Virus record (IMG/VR): IMGVR_UViG_3300029554_000001
Strand: one strand, 5' to 3'
Origin: a virus
Length of the DNA: 64,000 nt
In this document: positions 4,846-63,003 of the stretch, in pieces
Layout: every line of letters begins with the position of its first letter
Numbering within the stretch: the stretch's first letter is position 1
Program-made: the position numbers and the translations under genes
Notes under the pieces: generated by a model
Told to the model about the DNA's origin: nothing
The model's database searches: none
What the model saw: only the letters and a program-made list of their open reading frames with translations

Positions 4846-4874
4846 TTGACAACTCTCTTTGCTTGTAGTATTAT
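4846..4874 (+). promoter_or_regulatory. sigma70-like promoter
   Basis: TTGACA-N17-TATTAT. Confidence 0.55.
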
Positions 4875-24602: not shown

Positions 24603-25568
24603 TTGAAAGAATTTCAAGAATTTAAAGATTTAGAATAGTTTTATTTAAAAGCACAAGAAATATTTAAAGATAGAAAAAGAGTGGATAGTTACAAAGAAAT
24701 GTGTGAGCTTTTAGATGAACCTTATTATGCTTCACCTTCTCGCAAAGAGCGTCAAAAAATACAATTTACTACTTGGAAAAAATGTTTTACATGGCGCAAA
24801 TCAAAATAGAAGTTTATTAATATTAAAATGATTCCAAAAGAAATTTTTGACGAAAATCTTTAGGAATTAAAAAATAAACGAGAAGAAAAATCAAAAGCGC
24901 AATCTGAAAAAACTCTTCAAAATTATATTAAAAATTATAAACTTAATCATTTATTAACTGGAAGATGGCCTTCTCGTCCCTGCTCTTGGGATAAGAGAGG
25001 TGTATATATAGTTTATAATAAATCTAACAAAAATTCCTACAAAGGTCCTGTTTGTTATATCGGTAGTACTGCTATCGCTTTTTATAAAAGATTTAATAGT
25101 CATTTAAGCCCTTCTCAAACTATGTCTCAAGAAATAAGAGATTTAATGGAAGAGAAAGATACTCATATTAATTTTTTATGGTTCGCTCCTGATGATGCAA
25201 CAGAAGATGAAATACATGAGAAAGAAGCCGAGTTCTGGTCTATATATCAGAAAAAAGGATATCATATGCTTAATAAGCATATTCCTCAATATCATAGAAC
25301 TTTAAAAAATCCTAATAAAAAGAAAATTGCTCCCCATGGTTCTTATTTAACTGACGAAGATTGGATTAAATATAAAAAGATTAGTGCGAAAATTCCTTCT
25401 GATAAGATTCCTCTTTTAATTAAATTCTTGCAAAAAGATTTAAAATTAGAATTTTCAGAAGATTTTAATATGTGGACTGAACCTAATATGATTCCCAAAA
25501 TACAAAAGTTTGTTGAAGAAAATAAAAAGAAAGTGGAAATACGAGAGGTTGATAAAGATGACGAATAA
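24603..25568 (+). CDS. GIY-YIG homing-endonuclease-like protein with three in-frame TAGs (24636, 24807, 24861)
   Basis: AAAGGAGA-7 nt-TTG. GVYIVYN...CYIGST...R...E...N pattern (GIY-YIG) lies at 24996-25260. There is no ATG/GTG/TTG between TAG 24861 and the motif, so the catalytic domain can only be reached by reading through TAG. Confidence 0.6.
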
Positions 25569-26919
25569 TTAGCTTTATAGAAAATGCCAATAGAAATTAA
25601 AGGATGTTACAGAAGTAGAATCTTATAAAGCTATGTGTGCTTTATTAAACGAAGAATATTTCAAATATAAAAAAAGTAAAGATAGATAGCTTGAAGTTTG
25701 GAAAACTTGTTTTAGCTACGATTTACTTAAAAGTGGTAAGTTTATCAATATTAGACTTCTTTCAGAGTCAGAACATTTCCAGACTCTTACGGAACTGTTT
25801 AAAACAGATTCCATTTCTTACTCCCTTTGTGGCTTACTTAATCAATATAGTGATGAAACAAACGAAAGTATTGTTTATATAACTAAATCTGAATTAGCTT
25901 TTTGCTTAGGATTTTTTAATGAATCTTATAGCGCAGTAAAAAAATATCCTGAAATGTATTCTTATCAAGTTGAAAATGATATTTTAGCCCTTCGAAATAG
26001 CCGATATCCATTTATTAAAGAACATAAAGATTCTATTAAAGGTTGGAGAAAAGTAAAAAAAAATTCTTCTAAACCATCTAATGATACTCTTCAAAAAGTA
26101 GAAGATTTTACTACCCATTATTCATCTAATTATGAATATAAGGTCGAAAATGCTTTAAAGAACCTTGCTGATAGTGGTTATATTACTTTACATGAAGTCT
26201 ATATGGGTGCTTTTATTGATGATAACTTTAACTGGATTCCTAATATAGATAATATTTCAAATAAAGATGGTAGATATTACTTTAAAAGTGATGAAACAAC
26301 TACTTTAGTTATTCCTTATAAGGATAGAGAACTTACACCAGAAGAAGAAGTTAAATATATTCAAATTACCAATGAAATTTTCAGACAAATGAATCTTGAT
26401 GGAATTCAAGATGTTTTTAAACAAAATAAACAACTTAAATTTAGACAACAATTATTTCCTCAATTACTTTCTAACATGGGATGTTTATATATTTATAAAG
26501 CATACCGTATCGGATTTTCTTCTGAACATATTGGAGATAAAGAAACAAAAGTTAAAACTAAATTGCAATCTACTTTTGATATAGCTTCTTTAAAGAAAGC
26601 ATTAGCAGATAATAATAGTACAGCTACTAAAGCTAATCTTAAAAATGCCCAAAAACGTATTGAAGATAATATTTCTTCTAAGCATACTTTAGGTAATACT
26701 TTATCTGAAAGTCAAAAATTAGAACAAGAATATTCTACTTTTATATTAAAAAAGTTATCAAAAGAATTGCTTAATATAGATGTTGATTCCTATTTTCCTT
26801 CTACTTCTGATTCTTCTAATGCAATTCAATTCATTAATTCAAAGAAAAAAGCTATTTTTAATAATAGTTTACGACGTTTAAATAATAAAAGATAGTATGA
26901 TGAAAAATCTCAAAAATAA
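25558..26919 (+). CDS. hypothetical protein (453 codons) sharing an N-terminal module with the GIY-YIG gene; in-frame TAGs at 25570, 25591, 25687, 26893
   Basis: GAGAGG-9 nt-ATG. The frame joins track ORF 25954-26895. N-terminal YK(A/E)MC(A/E)LL...W K x CF...KFINI is shared with 24603-25568. If TAG is sense, the end moves to TAA 26917-26919. Confidence 0.5.
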
Positions 26920-27635: not shown

Positions 27636-28739
27636 ATGTTTAAGACCTACAAATATAGATTATATCCTAATAAAAAACAAACTGAACAAATTCAAAAAAC
27701 TTTTGGTTGTTGTCGTTTTGTTTATAATCAGGTTTTAAATTATAGAATTAATCTTTATGAAAATGAGAAAAAATCTATCAATAAATTTGATTGTAACAAT
27801 TATAAAAATAAAGTTCTTAAAGAAAAATATCCTTGGTTAAAAGAAGTAGATAAATTTGCTTTGGAAAATGCTATCTTTAATATGGATTCTGCTTTTCAAA
27901 AATTTTTTAAAGAACATTCAGGCTTTCCTAAATTTAAAAGTAAACATAATCACAAAAAATCTTATAAAACTAATTTTAGTAATAATATAAGAATTTCTTT
28001 TGAAAATAATAAAATTAAACTTCCTAAATTAAATTGGGTAAAAGTTAAATTTCATCGAATATTTTCAGGAAAAATTAAATCTGCTGTTATTTCTCAAAAT
28101 TCTTCTGGTAAATATTATGTTTCTATTTTAATTGAAACTGAAAATGAATCTACTTTTTTGCCATCTACAAATTCTTCTATTGGAATTGATTTAGGTATTA
28201 AAAATTTAATTATCACTTCTAATGGAGATAAATTTGATAATATTTATATTATTAAAAAATATGAAAAAAAGTTGGCAAAAGAACAAAGAAAATTATCAAA
28301 AAAAGTGAAGGATAGTAAAAATTATGAAAAACAGCGTAAAAAAGTTGCTGTAATATACGAAAAAATTCATAATAGTAGAATAGACTATTTACATAAAATC
28401 TCTCACAAACTCATTATCGAAAATCAAGTAATAGTTAGTGAGAATTTATCTGTAACTAATATGACTAAAAATCATAATCTTTCAAAATCAATTTTAGATT
28501 GTAGTTGGTACGAATTAACAAGACAGTTACAATATAAAACAGAATGGTATAACAAATCTTACATTAAAGTAGACCGTTTTTTCCCTTCTAGTCAAACTTG
28601 TCATGTTTGTGGCTATATAAATAAAAATGTAAAAAATTTAGCCGTCAGAAATTGGAAATGTCCTCAATGTAATACAATGCATGATAGAGATATTAACGCT
28701 GCAATTAACATCCTTAACGAAGGATTAAAATTATTATGA
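27636..28739 (+). CDS. tnpB: TnpB (IS200/IS605-family OrfB, RuvC-like RNA-guided nuclease)
   Basis: MFKTYKYRLYPNKKQ N-terminus; GIDLG (RuvC-I); SENL (RuvC-II E); CHVCG...CPQC zinc ribbon; HDRDINAAINI (RuvC-III). Confidence 0.85.
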   Translation: MFKTYKYRLYPNKKQTEQIQKTFGCCRFVYNQVLNYRINLYENEKKSINKFDCNNYKNKVLKEKYPWLKEVDKFALENAIFNMDSAFQKFFKEHSGFPKFKSKHNHKKSYKTNFSNNIRISFENNKIKLPKLNWVKVKFHRIFSGKIKSAVISQNSSGKYYVSILIETENESTFLPSTNSSIGIDLGIKNLIITSNGDKFDNIYIIKKYEKKLAKEQRKLSKKVKDSKNYEKQRKKVAVIYEKIHNSRIDYLHKISHKLIIENQVIVSENLSVTNMTKNHNLSKSILDCSWYELTRQLQYKTEWYNKSYIKVDRFFPSSQTCHVCGYINKNVKNLAVRNWKCPQCNTMHDRDINAAINILNEGLKLL

Positions 28740-43021: not shown

Positions 43022-43050
43022 TTGACAAGAATGAATTTGTATGTTACAAT
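43022..43050 (+). promoter_or_regulatory. plus-strand sigma70-like promoter inside the minus-strand gene block
   Basis: TTGACA-N17-TACAAT. Confidence 0.55.
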
Positions 43051-43051
43051 A

Positions 43052-43300
43052 CACATAGAGTTAAGAGACCAGTAACCTCTTAACCCTATGTGTTATGTTT
43101 TAATTTAATGTTTAGACTTCCATGAAGCCAGTCAAGACAATCACAGAATAATAAACATTAAATCTGTAGTTTATCTGTTTGATTTTCTACATGGTCTTTC
43201 ATCTCCTTTCTTCCTTAAGACAAGGGTTTCATTTATATGAACAGCTTACGGGGCTGGAGTTTTAGACAGGAACAGGATTATTCCTGTTCCTTTTCTTTTT
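43052..43300 (+). ncRNA. predicted antisense RNA covering peptide ORF a
   Basis: Promoter 43022-43050; 5' hairpin 43052-43094; terminator hairpin 43269-43290 plus T-run. Confidence 0.4.
43112..43192 (-). CDS. ATG-TAG small peptide, member a: MXKIKQINYRFNVYYSVIVLTGFMEV (X=TAG)
   Basis: AAAGGAG-10 nt-ATG TAG; 26 sense codons then TAA. Homologous to 52148-52228. Lies inside the antisense unit 43052-43300. Confidence 0.45.
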
Positions 43301-49115: not shown

Positions 49116-49194
49116 GATATTTCCTTTCTGCCCGTAAACCCGATAGCACAGGATAATAAATTGGTTTATTGTGGATTGTTATGTGAGAAAACGA

Positions 49195-49497
49195 TTAGAT
49201 GTCAATTTCGATGATTTTACCATCCCAGTTATCGTGATTGTAAGTCTCAGCCCATGCAGATGTATCATTGAAGTTGTTTTCATCATCAAGAATATCATCA
49301 TCTACAAGAGACTCAATAGCTTCTTCCAGCTCGTCCATCGTAGAGATGTTGCAAAAGTTATAATTATCTACATCAATATGCCGACAAGCTTCGATAAACA
49401 GCTCAAATAAATGAATCTGAGCTTTCTCCATAGTGTCGAAGAACTCAGGTTCACCAATTTCACGCTCACAGCAATCAATAACCATAAACTTCTTCAT
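49195..49497 (-). CDS. small acidic protein, paralogue of 56918-57220
   Basis: MKKFMV(I/T)D(C/T)CEREIG...NHDNWDGKI(I/F)EI(D/E)I; roughly two-thirds identical by eye. Confidence 0.65.
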   Translation of the reverse strand: MKKFMVIDCCEREIGEPEFFDTMEKAQIHLFELFIEACRHIDVDNYNFCNISTMDELEEAIESLVDDDILDDENNFNDTSAWAETYNHDNWDGKIIEIDI

Positions 49498-49536
49498 AAT
49501 TTTTATTTCCTTTCTTCAATCAAATGTTGTTTGTTG

Positions 49537-51602: not shown

Positions 51603-51631
51603 ATTATAAATCCCAAATCCGTAAATGTCAA
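51603..51631 (-). promoter_or_regulatory. minus-strand sigma70-like promoter upstream of the DUF932 gene
   Basis: Reverse complement reads AATACTTGACA-N17-TATAAT. Confidence 0.6.
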
Positions 51632-51851: not shown

Positions 51852-51880
51852 TTGACAAGATTGATGTTATGTGTTAATAT
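51852..51880 (+). promoter_or_regulatory. plus-strand sigma70-like promoter inside the minus block
   Basis: TTGACA-N17-TAATAT with upstream TGTGT. Confidence 0.55.
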
Positions 51881-51952
51881 ATGTATAGATGATAAGAAGA
51901 ATCCTATACTTCTTACTTACCATCTATACATCTTCGTAATTAATGTGTGAGA

Positions 51953-52024
51953 TTAATTACGGTTATAGATAATCATTATCTACATGAGATTGTAGAAATA
52001 ATTAACGTAGAAGATTCTCTACAT
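51953..52024 (-). CDS. ATG-TAG small peptide, member b: MXRIFYVNYFYNLMXIMIIYNRN
   Basis: AAAGGAG-9 nt-ATG TAG; second ATG TAG in frame at 51985-51980. The C-terminal IYNRN is shared with member e. Confidence 0.4.
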
Positions 52025-52147
52025 GGCTTTCAACTCCTTTCCTCCTTAGACAAGGGACAATTATATAACAGTTTATAGGAACTGATTATATTAGAATAAG
52101 AGAATCGCCTATACAATTCTCTTAGTGAATTATTTTAGTTTAAACTA

Positions 52148-52228
52148 TTAAAGTTCGTATGCTCCGCCAAGAACAATAGAACAATAATAAACATTAAACT
52201 AATAGTTTATTTGTTTGACTGTCTACAT
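52148..52228 (-). CDS. ATG-TAG small peptide, member c: MXTVKQINYXFNVYYCSIVLGGAYEL
   Basis: AAAGGAG-7 nt-ATG TAG; homologous to member a (KQINYxFNVYY). Confidence 0.45.
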
Positions 52229-52304
52229 AGACATTCTCCTTTCCATTTAGCACTAATATATAAACAGTTTATAGGAACTGATTATATCAAGAAAGAGCAG
52301 GATT

Positions 52305-52484
52305 TTATTCCTGCTCTTTTTCTATTGTGTACAAATACTGCTTTCGCTTTTCTTTGTACTGCTTATTGATTTTGTACCGATAATTGCCATGAGTCTTACG
52401 CTGGATTCCTTCACAGCGGTCATAGTACATACCATCGTACTGGGGATACTCTGTGATAGCATTGTTAGGTGTACGTTTAGACAT
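52305..52484 (-). CDS. hypothetical basic protein (59 aa)
   Basis: GGAGGG-8 nt-ATG 52484, ATGTCTAA overlap with the upstream stop. The C-terminal EKEQE codons overlap a plus-strand terminator hairpin. Confidence 0.5.
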   Translation of the reverse strand: MSKRTPNNAITEYPQYDGMYYDRCEGIQRKTHGNYRYKINKQYKEKRKQYLYTIEKEQE

Positions 52485-56882: not shown

Positions 56883-56917
56883 AGTATTATTTCCTTTCTT
56901 AATTCAGATGTTTAAAA

Positions 56918-57220
56918 TTAGATTTCGATTTCAAAGATTTTGCCATCCCAGTTATCATGGTTAGTAGTTTCAGCCCATGCACAAGTACCCTCGAAGTTGT
57001 TCTCGTCATCGAAAATGTCATTATCAATGAGAGAATCAATAGCTTTTTCAAGCTCTTCTTTTGTAGTGACAACATACTTATTATAATCATCTGCATCAAG
57101 ATGCCGACAAGCCTCAAGAAACAAATTGAACAAGTGAATCTGAGCTTTCTCCATGGTATCAAAGAAATAAGGATGACCAATCTCACGTTCGCAAGTATCA
57201 GTGACCATAAACTTCTTCAT
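56918..57220 (-). CDS. small acidic protein, paralogue of 49195-49497
   Basis: AAAGGAAAG SD; first gene after the minus promoter at 57312-57340. Confidence 0.65.
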   Translation of the reverse strand: MKKFMVTDTCEREIGHPYFFDTMEKAQIHLFNLFLEACRHLDADDYNKYVVTTKEELEKAIDSLIDNDIFDDENNFEGTCAWAETTNHDNWDGKIFEIEI

Positions 57221-57311
57221 AATTTTCTTTCCTTTCTTAAATCACAAATGTTGTTTAGTTCTCATCAATGCAAAAGCAACTTGTATCAGAATCAACTTTA
57301 TTATTGGTTAT

Positions 57312-57340
57312 ATTATACTTTCCTTTCTTAATGGTGTCAA
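57312..57340 (-). promoter_or_regulatory. minus-strand sigma70-like promoter upstream of 56918-57220
   Basis: Reverse complement reads AATACTTGACA-N17-TATAAT. Confidence 0.6.
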
Positions 57341-57368: not shown

Positions 57369-57397
57369 TTGACAAGTGTTGTGATTTGTGTTATATT
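57369..57397 (+). promoter_or_regulatory. plus-strand sigma70-like promoter inside the minus block
   Basis: TTGACA-N17-TATATT, TGT extension; divergent from the minus promoter 57312-57340. Confidence 0.55.
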
Positions 57398-57398
57398 A

Positions 57399-57640
57399 CA
57401 CTCATCAAGCAAGGTATGTAACTTTTACTTGATGAGTGTAGGTTTTACAATACCTGTAACTGTGGATTAGTTACGATGGTACACGATACGAACGACCGAG
57501 ATTTGTCTATCCATATCAACATGTAAAATTTTCTACATATTAATTTCTCCTTTCGTGAGTAATTATGTAAACAGGCTTTACAGGAGTCTGGTGTCTTAAG
57601 TAAGACTGGTAGTTAGTAGCTACCAGTCTTTTCTCTTTTA
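57399..57640 (+). ncRNA. predicted antisense RNA covering peptide ORF d
   Basis: Promoter 57369-57397; 5' hairpin ACACTCATCAAG...CTTGATGAGTGT; terminator 57603-57629 plus T-run. Confidence 0.4.
57467..57538 (-). CDS. ATG-TAG small peptide, member d: MXKILHVDMDRQISVVRIVYHRN
   Basis: AAAGGAG-8 nt-ATG TAG. Aligns with member e but is less hydrophobic (possibly decayed). Confidence 0.35.
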
Positions 57641-58613: not shown

Positions 58614-58642
58614 TTGACAGATATTATCAAGTGTGCTAAGAT
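58614..58642 (+). promoter_or_regulatory. plus-strand sigma70-like promoter inside the minus block
   Basis: TTGACA-N17-TAAGAT. Confidence 0.5.
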
Positions 58643-58643
58643 A

Positions 58644-58885
58644 AACACAAGTAGAAAGCCTACACTCTCTACTTGTGATGCAATTAATACGGATTAATTA
58701 CGATTGTAAATGATGAAGACTATTATTATAGACCAATAATAGTCAACTGCTAAGATTTTCTACATAGCAAAACTCCTTTCTAATTTAATAATACATTAAT
58801 TCATTGTAGGCTAAATTAATGTGCGAGTGAATAAGTTGGGCTTAAACACTCTATTGAGGGATGGAAGTTATTTTCCATCCCTCTA
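58644..58885 (+). ncRNA. predicted antisense RNA covering peptide ORF e
   Basis: Promoter 58614-58642. 5' hairpin CACAAGTAGA-loop AAGCCTACACTC-TCTACTTGTG. Distal hairpin 58856-58883 has no clear T-run. Confidence 0.35.
58694..58765 (-). CDS. ATG-TAG small peptide, member e: MXKILAVDYYWSIIIVFIIYNRN
   Basis: AAAGGAG-7 nt-ATG TAG; hydrophobic core SIIIVFII. Confidence 0.45.
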
Positions 58886-58892
58886 ACAATGT

Positions 58893-59087
58893 TTAAACTC
58901 TTTCAACCTTATAAGGCTTGCAAGCAACAACATCGAAATTGTTTACAAGCCAGTCAGGTTTGGTTTCTTTAGTATTAAGGAATTTACAAACAATGTTTGC
59001 AAGCACTTCACTGTTAAATACAGTTTTTTCCTTCATACTCATTGTAACTGTTACGGATTTTCCGTATTTGTTTGTAATCTTAAACAT
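58893..59087 (-). CDS. hypothetical protein (64 aa)
   Basis: GGAGG-7 nt-ATG 59087, overlapping the upstream stop (ATGTTTAA). Confidence 0.5.
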   Translation of the reverse strand: MFKITNKYGKSVTVTMSMKEKTVFNSEVLANIVCKFLNTKETKPDWLVNNFDVVACKPYKVERV

Positions 59088-60289: not shown

Positions 60290-60318
60290 TTGACACCCTC
60301 CTTTTGTTGTGTTATAAT
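60290..60318 (+). promoter_or_regulatory. plus-strand sigma70-like promoter inside the minus block
   Basis: TTGACA-N17-TATAAT, TGT extension. Confidence 0.6.
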
Positions 60319-60319
60319 A

Positions 60320-60655
60320 CCTAATAAGAAAAGTGGTTGACCAATCCACTCTTCTTATTAAATTGATTAGTCTAAGTCTAACTTAGATATATCTATCTGG
60401 AAGAATTCAATCAGCTATTCAACACTTAGGTGTTGCATGTACCAATTAAATTCAAACTCAGAAGTGATATACTACTTCAGAATAGAACCAATCTTTGCTT
60501 TATTACTAAGACTATCCTACATGAATTCCTCCTTTCTTTTAACTCGTTAGTGTTGTGACTAACTTGTTATTCGTTATCTTATTGGTCAGATAAGATAGAG
60601 TCTTAGCTGCAACTAAGCACTCTATGAAGGGTAGGAGCATATGTTCCTACCCTTT
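60320..60655 (+). ncRNA. predicted antisense RNA covering ORF f
   Basis: Promoter 60290-60318; 5' hairpin ~60324-60359; distal hairpin 60629-60652 followed by TTT. Confidence 0.35.
60367..60522 (-). CDS. ATG-TAG ORF, member f (51 codons; TAG at codons 2, 17, 36)
   Basis: AAAGGAGG-5 nt-ATG TAG. Same module architecture as the small peptides, but the product is longer and not hydrophobic. Confidence 0.35.
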
Positions 60656-60663
60656 AACAATGC

Positions 60664-61005
60664 TTAGATGTTATCCCACTGATTAGTGATGAAATTAAAG
60701 CATCGAACAGTTCCACCAATCTTTTTCTCCCAGCGGGGGTTGTTTTTGTTCAATGTATAAGTGGCAAGGCGACTTTTAGCAGCCGTGACAATAATATCAT
60801 ACTGACCGAGTTCCTGAAGAGACTTGATATAGTTCATGAGTTTGACATCATTTTCAAATTCGATGTCAATTGTTCTGGAAGCACTGACAATATCAGTGCA
60901 ATGGTCATCCACACCTTCAGGTTTCCACCCCTGTTCAAAGTGGCTGATAATAGAATCAATATCATAGATGCAGATGCGTTTAACAAACTTAACAGTGTAA
61001 TTCAT
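60664..61005 (-). CDS. hypothetical protein (113 aa)
   Basis: AAAGGAAAA SD. The stop is followed by the conserved GCATTGTTA-hairpin-ATAGAGTGCTTAG junction. Confidence 0.6.
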   Translation of the reverse strand: MNYTVKFVKRICIYDIDSIISHFEQGWKPEGVDDHCTDIVSASRTIDIEFENDVKLMNYIKSLQELGQYDIIVTAAKSRLATYTLNKNNPRWEKKIGGTVRCFNFITNQWDNI

Positions 61006-61034
61006 TTCTTTTTTCCTTTCTGTTTATAAAAGTC

Positions 61035-61063
61035 TTGACAAGCACAATTTCATGTGTTATACT
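61035..61063 (+). promoter_or_regulatory. plus-strand sigma70-like promoter inside the minus block
   Basis: TTGACA-N17-TATACT, TGT extension. Confidence 0.6.
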
Positions 61064-61064
61064 T

Positions 61065-61295
61065 GTTATTAGAATAAGAGAAGTGCCTACACACCTCTCT
61101 TATTAATAAGCTTTTATTCTTCTTAGAAATTATAGTTCTTTAGAATTACAACTACAACGACGTTTAAAGAATAATTGACTGAAATAATCTTCTTCATTGT
61201 TTTACCTCCTTAAGAAGATAAAAGCAAACAAGGATGTAGGTCCTTATTCACTACAGAGGAGAGATGTGGGGATATCTCTCCTTCTGTTATATTTG
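61065..61295 (+). ncRNA. predicted antisense RNA covering peptide ORF g
   Basis: Promoter 61035-61063. 5' hairpin AATAAGAGA-loop AGTGCCTACACACC-TCTCTTATT. Terminator 61258-61282 plus TTCTGTTATATTT. Confidence 0.4.
61123..61197 (-). CDS. small hydrophobic peptide, member g (no TAG): MKKIISVNYSLNVVVVVILKNYNF
   Basis: AAGGAGG-7 nt-ATG AAG. Closest relatives are members h, i and j. Differs from i by 11 synonymous and 4 non-synonymous codons. Confidence 0.5.
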   Translation of the reverse strand: MKKIISVNYSLNVVVVVILKNYNF

Positions 61296-61326
61296 AGTAG
61301 TTTAACGACTTGCTCAGGTCGAGAGG

Positions 61327-61728
61327 TTAGTTCTGATAATCGTCAGAAACTAATACCCATTCTTCCCCATTACTATCAATAAGATGAATGGTTGTTCTAT
61401 CCTCACTGATAGTTACATTCTGAAGATTAGAGAACCAATCCTCAGTTGTTGTGTAGCTATCCTCAACTCCTTTGTTATAACCAGCGTTATATGCACCAGT
61501 TACGTCTTCGTTAGTGAAGACTTCTGCTGGTGCACTTTTACTGTAATCAATATGGTCAAGAATAACAGCGATTCCAATCGCAAGGACAACTACCAGAATA
61601 AACATAGCTCTGGGATTCATGCTCTTATTTTGAGCTATTGCTTCAAGATTAATAACAAGACCGTACACAATCATGATAGCAACAATAGCAATAGCAACAA
61701 TGGTAACATTGGTAATATTGATAAACAT
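61327..61728 (-). CDS. membrane protein (133 aa)
   Basis: The second ATG (61728) has proper SD spacing; the track start 61734 is 1 nt from the SD. Two N-terminal TM segments. Confidence 0.55.
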   Translation of the reverse strand: MFINITNVTIVAIAIVAIMIVYGLVINLEAIAQNKSMNPRAMFILVVVLAIGIAVILDHIDYSKSAPAEVFTNEDVTGAYNAGYNKGVEDSYTTTEDWFSNLQNVTISEDRTTIHLIDSNGEEWVLVSDDYQN

Positions 61729-61762
61729 CTTCATTTCCTTTCTGGTTTTTTACGTCTTTTCC

Positions 61763-61791
61763 TTGACAAACAATTATTTATGTGTTATTAT
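61763..61791 (+). promoter_or_regulatory. plus-strand sigma70-like promoter inside the minus block
   Basis: TTGACA-N17-TATTAT (TATAAT 3 nt further), TGT extension. Confidence 0.55.
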
Positions 61792-61837
61792 AATGATGAG
61801 AAGGTTGCCTACACAACCTCCTTAATGCATAATTATC

Positions 61838-61912
61838 TTAGAAGTTGTGATTCTTCAAGATAATCATACTAACTATGCCGAGAACATAGTCAATAAATGT
61901 TATTTTCTACAT
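61838..61912 (-). CDS. ATG-TAG small peptide, member h: MXKITFIDYVLGIVSMIILKNHNF
   Basis: AAAGGTG-5 nt-ATG TAG. Confidence 0.45.
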
Positions 61913-62056
61913 TTTATCACCTTTTCATAATTTAATACTTAATTATAAATTATGTAGGTAATCTATAATTAAGCAGACTGCTTATTGCGACTAAGCACTC
62001 TATAAGATAGAGGAAGATACTCTTATCTTCCTCTACCCTAACAATGCTTATTATGC

Positions 62057-62131
62057 TCAGAAGTTATAATTCTTCAGTATGGCAACTGTTACAACATTAA
62101 GAGCATAATTTACGGAAATCGTTTTCTACAT
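62057..62131 (-). CDS. ATG-TAG small peptide, member i: MXKTISVNYALNVVTVAILKNYNF
   Basis: AAAGGAGG-8 nt-ATG TAG; in tandem with member h. Confidence 0.5.
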
Positions 62132-62219
62132 GATGATTTCCTCCTTTCCGAGTGCGATTTGGATTACTAAGCACTCTATTAAGCCCACCATCAATTACGA
62201 TGATGGGCTTTAACAATGC

Positions 62220-62390
62220 TCAGATAGGGATACAAATAACATATCCATCATCCAAGAATCGGGGATAAAGCTTATTCTTATTGAGAAGCTTATCTCCAAT
62301 CTCTTTTGCTTCCTCCTCATTAGAGGCAGACACGAATACTGTATCACAACCACTAATGATGGAAGTGATATATTTGACTTTGTATGTCAT
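62220..62390 (-). CDS. hypothetical protein (56 aa)
   Basis: AAAGGAA SD; below the track cutoff. The stop is followed by the conserved junction motif. Confidence 0.5.
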   Translation of the reverse strand: MTYKVKYITSIISGCDTVFVSASNEEEAKEIGDKLLNKNKLYPRFLDDGYVICIPI

Positions 62391-62417
62391 TTTCTTTTAT
62401 TCCTTTCTATAAAAGTC

Positions 62418-62446
62418 TTGACAAATACAACTTTATATGTTATACT
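62418..62446 (+). promoter_or_regulatory. plus-strand sigma70-like promoter inside the minus block
   Basis: TTGACA-N17-TATACT, TGT extension. Confidence 0.6.
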
Positions 62447-62447
62447 T

Positions 62448-62680
62448 GTTGTTGTAGTAAGAAAGATGCCTATACACCTTTCTTACAAAAAGAGTGATTA
62501 TTAACCTTATCAGAAGTTATAATTCTTTAGGACGAGAATCGTAACAACATTTAAAGTATAATCTATTGTAATTATCTTCTACATTTATTACCTCCTGAAG
62601 ATTGATAGAAGTACTTATCAATATAGGTTAATAAGCACTACAAAACATTGGGACACTTGTTCGGAAGTGTCCCTTTTGCT
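62448..62680 (+). ncRNA. predicted antisense RNA covering peptide ORF j
   Basis: Promoter 62418-62446. 5' hairpin GTAAGAAAG-loop ATGCCTATACACC-CTTTCTTAC. Strong terminator GGGACACTT-GTTCGG-AAGTGTCCC 62650-62673 plus TTTT. Confidence 0.45.
62510..62584 (-). CDS. ATG-TAG small peptide, member j: MXKIITIDYTLNVVTILVLKNYNF
   Basis: CAGGAGG-6 nt-ATG TAG. Confidence 0.5.
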
Positions 62681-62880: not shown

Positions 62881-63003
62881 GTTCTTTCTACCTCCTTTCA
62901 TGATGGACTGCTGACTTTGGTTTCCCATCATCAGTGCCGTAGTAACCAACTACGACAGACAAGAGAGATTATTAGTCTCTCTTGTTTCGGGGTTGTGGAG
63001 AGG

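Follow-up and report, generated by a model that had tools for sequence, protein, structure and literature searches.

A family of about ten small minus-strand genes was characterized in a 64,000-nucleotide (nt) stretch of viral DNA (the window; IMG/VR record IMGVR_UViG_3300029554_000001). In nine of the ten, a Shine-Dalgarno (SD) sequence and an ATG are followed at once by TAG, and eight consensus promoters face these genes from the opposite strand. The simplest account that uses all parts is that these mini-genes would be expressed only late, being kept off until then by two means, an amber codon at position 2 and a cis-antisense RNA from an early-type promoter. This account is given an even chance of being correct.

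According to this two-lock account, the small genes would be silent early in infection. The first lock would be translational, with ribosomes starting at the ATG behind a strong SD and stopping at once at TAG before a suppressor tRNA is active. After amber suppression, a peptide of 23-26 amino acids (51 in one unit) would be made. The second lock would be a backward consensus host-type promoter with an extended -10 element, downstream of each gene or gene pair, giving a non-coding RNA of 225-440 nt that is complementary to the whole open reading frame (ORF), its start codon and its SD and that ends at a terminator of its own strand. This RNA would cover the SD and target the duplex for cleavage, besides colliding with transcription of the sense strand. 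In the sense mRNA, one hairpin, HP-U, would precede the SD and another, HP-B, would follow the stop codon of the mini-ORF. Pairing of their hexaloops would close the cassette, and the complement of HP-B would also serve as the 5' stem-loop of the antisense RNA. The loop-loop contact may stabilise, block or guide antisense access, or recycle ribosomes.

The window is composed of two convergent arms, with plus-strand genes from 1 to ~36 kb and minus-strand genes from 64 to ~36 kb; an earlier note on this DNA had likewise placed all coding between 36 and 63 kb on the minus strand. A megablast search of the window against 50,697 phage records gave no match and no close cultured relative, and protein matches in these records were distant (<32% identity). 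A ParB-like gene used as query identified seven IMG/VR viral contigs of 108-221 kb with 70-97% nucleotide identity over the region and a mosaic gene order, and ~35 further loci on contigs of the same kind were added by pattern search. The relatives are all large viral contigs, and therefore the window is assigned to an uncultured jumbo phage lineage; the genome is probably ~215 kb in size and appears to decode TAG as glutamine. All parts of the unit are kept in more than 40 related loci on the 108-221 kb contigs. These genomes are closely related, so sequence counts overstate the number of independent events, and the independent evidence consists of about eight loop versions and at least seven paralogue classes. 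All results rest on sequence.

The strict promoter pattern TTGACA-N14-TGN-TANNNT has 19 matches in the 64 kb (0.12 expected; at most one in any of 100 shuffles). All 19 are on the plus strand, even inside the minus-strand arm, and none was found on the minus strand of the whole window. Eleven are located in the plus arm, where most precede an SD and start codon by 20-45 nt, and this class is therefore regarded as the working promoter type of the phage. The remaining eight are located in the minus arm and point against its genes. These are the eight plus-strand promoters listed in the earlier note, and all were recovered; they match the hexamers at 10-12 of 12 positions, have boxes spaced by 17 nt and carry TG at -15/-14. 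Four of them, 62418..62446 (TTGACA-17-TATACT, consensus and conserved in relatives), 61763..61791 (TTGACA-17-TATTAT), 61035..61063 (TTGACA-17-TATACT) and 60290..60318 (TTGACA-17-TATAAT, 12/12), all with the TG extension, serve the units nearest the window end. The others, 58614-58642, 57369-57397, 51852-51880 and 43022-43050, belong to the units 58614..58895, 57369..57630, 51852..52321 (a double unit) and 43022..43291, respectively. Each promoter is situated 45-100 nt 3' of a small minus-strand ORF, as had been noticed before, but one of the covered ORFs (60522-60367) falls outside the peptide family. Two mini-ORFs (62131 and 52228) are without a promoter of their own and could be covered only by the transcript of the neighbouring unit.

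In the window and 83 loci, 144 such sites were found, of which 87 are antisense to an SD-ATG-TAG ORF and 15 to an SD-ATG-AAG ORF, 22 are ordinary gene promoters and 20 are unclear. Conservation was followed in 38 distinct units, aligned on the neighbouring hairpin as anchor and not on the promoter itself. TTGACA, TG and TAnnnT are invariant in every unit that precedes a gene, whereas the spacers diverge between paralogue classes, of which there are at least seven. Only units in which HP-B leads to another mini-ORF rather than to a gene are without the promoter, and the most distant units (loci L008, L028, L065, L068 and L079) retain it. The earlier note had staked its proposal on the conservation of these boxes in homologous modules, and the boxes and the TG are indeed unchanged in paralogue classes and distant relatives.

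Consensus promoters in the sense direction of the minus arm (12/12) occur only at 57312-57340 and 51603-51631 (minus), both without the TG extension. The promoter at 57340 and the antisense promoter at 57369 are placed back to back, and the spacer of the former holds the SD-like AAGAAAGGAAAG. In the plus arm, the -35 box and spacer of many promoters (for example those at 4846, 6545, 10463, 12996 and 16159) recur in inverted orientation in the SD region, 35-45 nt downstream, as in TTGACAACACCTCTCTTTT ... AAAAGAGAGGTGTT. RNA reading through from upstream would mask the SD and promoter-started RNA would not, an arrangement that looks like a promoter-embedded anti-SD.

Plus-oriented hairpins with T-runs were found at all five terminators named in the earlier note, located at 62650-62673 (GGGACACTT..AAGTGTCCC then TTTTGCTTTG), 61256-61283 (GAGGAGAGAT..ATCTCTCCTT then CTGTTATATTT), 57602-57630, 52290-52321 and 43268-43291. 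The more general statement that each unit ends in this way applies to five of the eight units, which carry a G+C-rich hairpin and a T-run on the plus strand, and fails for the units at 60290, 58614 and 61763. In 45 distinct units of the window and its relatives, the sense strand has on average 6.1 A in the 10 nt before the terminator hairpin and 3.6 T in the 10 nt after it. Sense A before the hairpin is plus-strand T after it, and canonical terminator types show 7-9 A in the sense 10 nt before the hairpin. By base composition, the terminators appear to be built to stop plus-strand RNA and to be poor in the sense direction. The predicted plus-strand RNAs are ~225-245 nt long from 62418, 61035, 57369 and 43022, and ~440 nt, spanning two ORFs, from 51852. 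The proposal of an antisense RNA across the whole ORF and its SD agrees with the presence of a discrete plus-strand unit (consensus promoter, predicted transcript of ~225-440 nt, terminator) that overlaps the small ORF and SD. In silico, the features of the antisense-RNA gene of a type I toxin-antitoxin locus are found here, a consensus promoter and a plus-oriented terminator placed around the ORF and conserved in relatives.

Upstream of some units, long hairpins on the minus strand stand in place of the terminator (62165-62225, 61985-62050, 60604-60660 and 58830-58895). Their upper stem varies, their internal loop is conserved and their outer helix (sense AAGCAUUGUUA ... AUAGAGUGCUU) covaries, with AAGCA/UGCUU changing to AAACA/UGUUU. 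In the hairpin at 62165-62225, the conserved flanks read AAGCAUUGUUA ... AUAGAGUGCUUAG and contain a wobble pair on the sense strand; those at 61985-62050 and 60604-60660 have conserved flanks as well. No Rfam family matched the long hairpins. They could be RNase III-type processing sites, by analogy with the early mRNAs of T7 and SP82.

The same promoters and terminators can be read as a device of transcriptional interference or insulation, in which the backward promoters matter as DNA-bound polymerases and the short RNA is a quickly terminated by-product. Convergent initiation in units of ~250 bp would block or delay sense read-through, and the eight units would act as timed checkpoints of the minus arm. 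The position of the promoter fits this reading, since it is always between a mini-ORF and the next gene and is missing if another mini-ORF follows. Only two consensus sense promoters are present in 20 kb of the minus arm, so most genes rely on read-through; the terminators stop transcription of the plus strand and are poor in the sense direction; and no structure is selected on the plus-strand RNA. Interference does not account for the constant presence of an amber-gated ORF with a strong SD in the covered segment, nor for a dedicated terminator that confines the RNA to exactly that ORF. It is unlikely as the whole explanation, although it survives best among the alternatives, and it is not mutually exclusive with antisense pairing.

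The translational lock of the two-lock account concerns the mini-ORFs themselves. The earlier note treated them as ordinary peptide ORFs, which does not hold under the standard code: nine of the ten are ATG-TAG start-stops and become ORFs only if TAG is a sense codon; the tenth has AAG at this position. The note had overlooked the amber codon 2 and the recoding of TAG in the phage, which would provide a second, translational lock. With TAG read as sense (q), the ORFs encode a family of 23-26 amino acids, M-q-K-I-x-x-[VI]-[DN]-Y ... I-[ILV]-[KY]-N-x-N(F). The copies near the window end, all on the minus strand, are 62510..62584 (SD GGAGG at 62591-62595, ATG, TAG, 22 codons; MqKIITIDYTLNVVTILVLKNYNF), 62057..62131 (ATG-TAG, MqKTISVNYALNVVTVAILKNYNF), 61838..61912 (ATG-TAG, MqKITFIDYVLGIVSMIILKNHNF) and 61123..61197 (AAG for TAG at codon 2, MKKIISVNYSLNVVVVVILKNYNF). 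Further copies are located at 58694-58765, 57467-57538, 52148-52228, 51953-52024 and 43112-43192. In the window and relatives, 58 distinct nucleotide versions of the family were found, with TAG at codon 2 in 49, AAG in nine and CAA or CAG in none. Since the glutamine codons never occur there, the amber codon itself appears to be selected, which suggests a gate and not a requirement for glutamine. In alignments, the codon-2 TAG matches AAG (Lys), unlike internal TAGs, which alternate in orthologues with CAA or CAG at matching positions (MDRQ/MDRq, KQINY/KqINY and IVQV/VIqV).

Codon periodicity continues through TAG in the mini-ORFs. Column entropy falls from codon position 3 to position 1 to position 2 (1.18/0.69/0.37 in the 24-amino-acid group and 1.38/0.96/0.59 in the 23-amino-acid group). 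Two adjacent plus-arm genes (24603-26919) with three and four in-frame TAGs share a paralogous N-terminal domain that aligns across the TAG positions (E = 2e-11), and TAG terminates only one of ~100 coding-strand genes. From the periodicity, the exchange of TAG with glutamine codons and the near absence of TAG terminators, TAG is therefore taken to be read as glutamine, as in code-15 phages. The marks of code 15, namely in-frame TAG in conserved frames, TAG matching glutamine codons in homologues and depletion of TAG as terminator, are found here together. The lengths of ORFs in the whole window are uninformative on recoding because most window genes are without TAG. Under the standard code, the region 24603-26919 (+) looks nearly gene-free, and its first gene contains a segment judged by eye only to be GIY-YIG-like.

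One ORF with the same layout, 60367..60522 (-), encodes an acidic product of 51 amino acids that is unrelated to the peptide family and carries TAG at codons 2, 17 and 36; the layout is therefore not tied to one peptide. This ORF, with its three TAGs, is conserved. A role of the codon-2 TAG in RNA pairing, considered because of the likeness of AUGUAG to the HP-B loop UGUAGG and its potential to pair with CCUACA in the HP-U loop, was rejected because units with the loops CCCGUA, UCCGUG, CCUGUAA and UGACCAA keep TAG as well.

The hairpins that bracket the mini-ORFs were analysed on both strands. HP-B starts 5-14 nt after the -10 box in each of the eight units, and the earlier description of a transcript opening on a stable hairpin is borne out to this extent. 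The minus strand, however, folds better than the plus strand in ~40 of 47 distinct cases (for example -25.7 vs -15.8 and -19.2 vs -13.1 kcal/mol). The stems in alignment A2 comprise 452 Watson-Crick pairs and, among the wobbles, 50 that are G.U on the sense strand (A.C on the plus strand) against five of the reverse kind. From this wobble bias of 50 to 5, the sense (minus) RNA is therefore the selected strand of the hairpins. HP-U is a second hairpin ~45 nt upstream of the ATG, and its stems differ between paralogues by compensatory changes and sense-strand wobbles. The covariation analysis in homologous modules that the earlier note had called for was carried out on A2, and the stems covary: 93.2% of cells are paired vs 73.7% in shuffled alignments, and the covariation score is 0.58 vs 0.23, above all 500 shuffles and with no slid register near it. 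A unit is unusually structured on both strands, with z-scores of -4.5 (sense) and -5.9 (antisense).

The loops of HP-B and HP-U are complementary. HP-B is located at 62457..62486 (hexaloop UAUAGG, plus strand CCTATA at 62469-62474; -16.5 kcal/mol on the minus and -11.4 on the plus strand), 61798..61823 (UGUAGG, CCTACA at 61808-61813) and 61073..61104 (UGUAGG, CCTACA at 61086-61091). The complement of the first of these would form the 5' stem-loop of the antisense RNA. The corresponding HP-U hairpins are located at 62614..62635 (CCUAUA, plus strand TATAGG at 62622-62627, complementary to the HP-B loop), 61938..61973 (CCUACA, TGTAGG at 61953-61958) and 61224..61251 (CCUACA, TGTAGG at 61235-61240; an 11-bp stem with three sense G.U pairs), respectively, all on the minus strand. 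In the 51-amino-acid unit, the loop of HP-U (60575..60597) holds UGACCAA and that of HP-B (60323..60359) holds the complementary UUGGUCA. HP-B was further located at 58646-58677 (with HP-U at 58793-58822), 57398-57439, 52095-52124 and 43051-43093, and the double unit has an additional hairpin at 51881-51931.

The loop motif reported in the earlier note was found as CCTAYAC at 58659, 61086, 61808, 62469 and 52108, and a sixth copy is present at 51903. GCCTAYAC on the plus strand is the complement of the HP-B hexaloop URUAGG, and HP-U carries CCUAYA on that same sense strand. The hairpin with this loop is not primarily a 5' element of the antisense RNA, where the earlier note had placed it and had suggested a kissing loop or protein site. 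Its loop is conserved as the partner of the HP-U hexaloop, which precedes the SD on that strand; a kissing contact with the cis-antisense RNA would call for no conservation. The variable loop position covaries perfectly in A2 (19 C-G, 18 U-A), and divergent units carry the pairs CCCACA/UGUGGG, CCCGUA(A)/(U)UACGGG, UCCGUG/CACGGA, CCUGUAA/UUACAGG and UCAUUC/GAAUGA, so that eight complementary loop versions are known. The loop pairs were counted by cross-tabulation of motifs, as extraction with RNAfold under-called them (U.G closing pairs shrink hexaloops to tetraloops). Concordant loops were counted in 66 of 79 distinct units and discordant loops in one; in the others, one side was missed by the motif list. 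Sense and antisense RNA are complementary in any case, so that a contact between them demands no covariation, and therefore the covariation of the loops points to pairing within one strand or between like molecules. The loop-loop contact is regarded as a well-supported, predicted long-range RNA interaction in a phage mRNA.

Several other explanations of the hairpins were tried and rejected. Terminal inverted repeats, as in miniature inverted-repeat transposable elements, do not account for the loop complementarity, as HP-U and HP-B match in their loops alone and have unrelated stems. A general helix between the 5' and 3' untranslated regions (UTRs) that closes the ORF reaches high stability (-18 to -21 kcal/mol) in no type but 61197; own pairs average -9.6 and cross pairs -8.6 across all units. 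HP-B as a sense terminator, or HP-A/HP-B as a classical attenuator, is contradicted by the few U-tails, and no antiterminator pairing was found. The HP-U loop overlaps possible -10 boxes of a sense promoter (TACAAT, TATATT, TATAAA), for which no conserved -35 box was found; the G.U-rich stems argue that HP-U is transcribed. In NRN-type units (58694-58720, 51953-51975 and relatives), a third hairpin, CGUAAUUAAU ... AUUAAUURYG, takes in the stop codon and the three codons before it on its 5' arm. Its loops vary, and its wobble pairs are those of the sense strand. Part of the constraint on the conserved C-terminus of NRN-type peptides may therefore act on the RNA.

The codon-2 amber and the closed sense RNA may together be read as a leader-peptide device, in which the ATG-TAG mini-ORFs are built-in sensors of the switch in genetic code and the product is secondary. 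With TAG as stop, ribosomes would leave at codon 2 and the HP-U/HP-B ring would stay closed. Decoding of TAG would open the ring and free the peptide, and this would reprogram the cassette (stability, antisense access and downstream expression, through altered processing, HP-B termination or stability), while the backward early promoters would hold all of this off beforehand. This possibility, next in order after interference, is held to be doubtful. It agrees with a codon 2 that is TAG or AAG and never CAA or CAG, so that the amber itself is selected, with an ORF inside a covarying loop-loop closure of the sense RNA, with the stop codon inside the third hairpin of NRN-type units, with a U-rich tail after HP-B in some units (58677-58646 and 60359-60323), and with the housing of the unrelated 51-amino-acid ORF in the same layout. 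The peptide is conserved with codon periodicity, however, which indicates selection on the product; an alternative antiterminator pairing was not found; and HP-B has no U-tract in most units. The stop codon is 13-25 nt before HP-B, so a terminating ribosome would not melt HP-B, and the nine AAG genes would be constitutively 'on'.

Mosaic breakpoints in the related genomes coincide exactly with the units, and the genes between units are exchanged. Paralogous units are 70-80% identical across 75-95 nt. An exchange inside a single gene was observed in two relatives (L004:9807 and L007:9804) compared with window 58694-58765. The 5' leader, ATG-TAG, last five codons, both hairpins and promoter are identical, whereas the central part is swapped for an unrelated sequence of the same length (MqKILAVDYYWS... 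vs MqRIIFVDLINq...). The exchange appears cassette-like and is contained within a 72-nt gene.

The block of promoter, hairpin and mini-ORF may thus be seen mainly as a mobile regulatory cassette, a recombination substrate that shuffles accessory genes, with incidental promoter activity. It would then resemble the PeSLs, which are described in PMC2839356 and PMC4122927 as composite early-promoter/stem-loop repeats flanking variable genes. Genomes that break exactly at units, a peptide body swapped between conserved flanks and the identity between paralogous units speak for it. Recombination alone would not hold the hexamers and TG invariant against drifting spacers, orient the terminators, or keep coding periodicity and loop complementarity; the reading is improbable, and shuffling is more likely a consequence than the function.

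The proposal of the earlier note, that host-killing membrane peptides are paired with labile plus-strand antitoxin RNAs in classical type I toxin-antitoxin loci for addiction or host shutoff, is more improbable still: a small ORF, full cis-antisense overlap, convergent promoter, shared terminator, an mRNA folded by a long-range contact (as described for hok and aapA1 mRNAs; PMC5416894) and, in most copies, an uncharged core of 11-19 residues with basic net charge are set against the lack of similarity to any toxin family, cores that are short for a membrane helix, four charged core residues in the 57538 copy, an acidic 51-amino-acid product at 60522, ten copies in a probably lytic jumbo phage and an amber gate without counterpart in known type I systems. 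The products have values of -0.24 to 0.88 in the grand average of hydropathy and uncharged runs of 5-19 residues, with sizes of 23-26 amino acids plus the one of 51; the 57538 copy and the 60522 ORF are not hydrophobic. No match was found in Pfam or PHROG at E <= 1 for five peptides and the 51-amino-acid ORF, except for a marginal one of the 43192 copy to phrog_30833 (E = 0.14), a PHROG of unknown function.

The alternatives partly overlap each other, and several observations weigh against the two-lock account itself. On the plus strand, the units at 60290, 58614 and 61763 have no T-run terminator and lead instead into long hairpins flanked by conserved sequence. For the hairpins, selection is seen on the sense strand, and only the promoter and terminator show selection for an antisense RNA. 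In the discordant unit (L058), CCUACA is combined with UAUAGG, which gives a C.A mismatch on the sense and U.G on the antisense strand. The peptides are moderately hydrophobic only and not clearly membrane toxins. No tRNA, and hence no amber suppressor, was found in the 64-kb window or in 46 fetched loci, with ~150 kb per genome lying outside. Consensus sense-strand promoters are also present upstream in relatives, and these, together with those at 57340 and 51631, indicate that the minus arm is probably early too, so that early antisense and late sense timing is an assumption. The phages of this lineage are known from metagenomes only.

If the two-lock account is true, codon reassignment would here be combined for the first time with type-I-like control by a cis-antisense RNA. 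The code switch has so far been approached mainly by mapping genes with recoded codons, and a codon-2 amber with its own antisense promoter and a defined RNA fold would offer a compact, portable reporter of the switch in one 300-bp unit. The sensor, if true, would be the first known cis-regulatory device that reads out stop-codon reassignment. If the peptides are host-active, ten diversifying paralogues per genome would point to an arms-race function.

Other genes of the window encode two PcfJ-like proteins, one DUF932, one ParB-like DUF6551 and one TnpB. The TnpB/IS605 OrfB-type gene (27636-28739, +) lies within the phage and has OrfB_IS605 and Cas12f1-like TNB and HTH domains. A duplicated pair of small genes was found in the minus arm (49194-49512 and 56917-57235), in blocks of ~150 nt, 7,723 nt apart, with identical spacing and 78-80% identity. 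A candidate type II hammerhead ribozyme is present at 62916-62992 (minus) in the 5' leader of a gene for a 48-amino-acid membrane protein (ATG 62886). It scored 31.2 bits vs a gathering score of 37 (E = 1e-4 in a 300-nt search), has intact CUGAUGA, GAAAC and GUC cores, and is kept in L002, L004 and L034, with paired insertions in one stem. Apart from this unrelated element outside the units, Rfam gave no hit at the gathering threshold or at E <= 0.5 in the window and six relatives.

The layout was compared with several known systems. Type I loci (ibs/Sib, par Fst/RNA II, hok/sok and aapA1/IsoA1) likewise have a tiny ORF whose SD and start codon lie under a convergent small RNA, a shared or bidirectional terminator region, multiple paralogous copies and an mRNA whose 5' and 3' parts are joined by a long-range contact. 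One such contact is the fbi element of hok, which is comparable to the predicted loop-loop closure of the phage. A long-distance interaction is also described for the aapA1 mRNA in PMC5416894. The phage contact would be a hexaloop-hexaloop kiss, whereas that of type I loci is an end-to-end helix. The phage units further differ in having no homology to known toxins, peptides of 23-26 amino acids that are not clearly transmembrane, one acidic 51-amino-acid ORF, a jumbo-phage replicon and a codon-2 amber as an extra translational gate. The type I layout seen in the earlier note stands as a fully overlapping cis-antisense arrangement, but not as homology to a toxin family. The likeness appears to be one of layout only, and membership is not claimed because the peptides match no family and are not uniformly hydrophobic.

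The PeSL cassettes of T4-type phages (PMC2839356 and PMC4122927) also show repeated promoter/stem-loop motifs between small variable genes and mosaic breakpoints at the repeats, both of which are found here. PeSL promoters point with the flanked genes, whereas all eight promoters in the minus arm of the phage are antisense; the plus arm is nearer to the PeSL arrangement. Unlike PeSLs, the phage units enclose a conserved mini-ORF and a loop-loop pair.

In gut phages, recoding of TAG to glutamine (code 15) was described as a brake on late and lysis genes (10.1101/2021.08.26.457843, Borges et al.; PMC9523058, Peters et al.), and the notion that a gene with recoded codons stays untranslated before the code switch comes from the same work. 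As here, in-frame TAG occurs in only some genes of these phages and is almost absent as terminator. The amber of the mini-ORFs differs from these reports in being at codon 2 of a whole family, at a position selected for TAG itself, and in being joined to an antisense promoter and bracketing RNA structure. A search of the preprint 10.1101/2021.08.26.457843 for the terms 'second codon' and 'antisense' gave no occurrence.

Kissing loops such as those of ColE1 RNA I/RNA II, the HIV-1 dimerization initiation site and the 3' cap-independent translation element and 5'UTR of plant viruses are similar in consisting of two hairpins with fully complementary loops of 6-7 nt kept by covariation. In the phage, a single mRNA of a bacterial virus would instead carry both loops, one on either side of a 75-nt ORF. 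Two-codon minigenes and start-stop ORFs (lambda bar and AUG-stop upstream ORFs) share the strong SD, the ATG and, as an uninfected host reads it, the immediate stop. Unlike in these minigenes, the downstream frame of the phage mini-ORFs is conserved as a protein, and the stop would be meant for later read-through.

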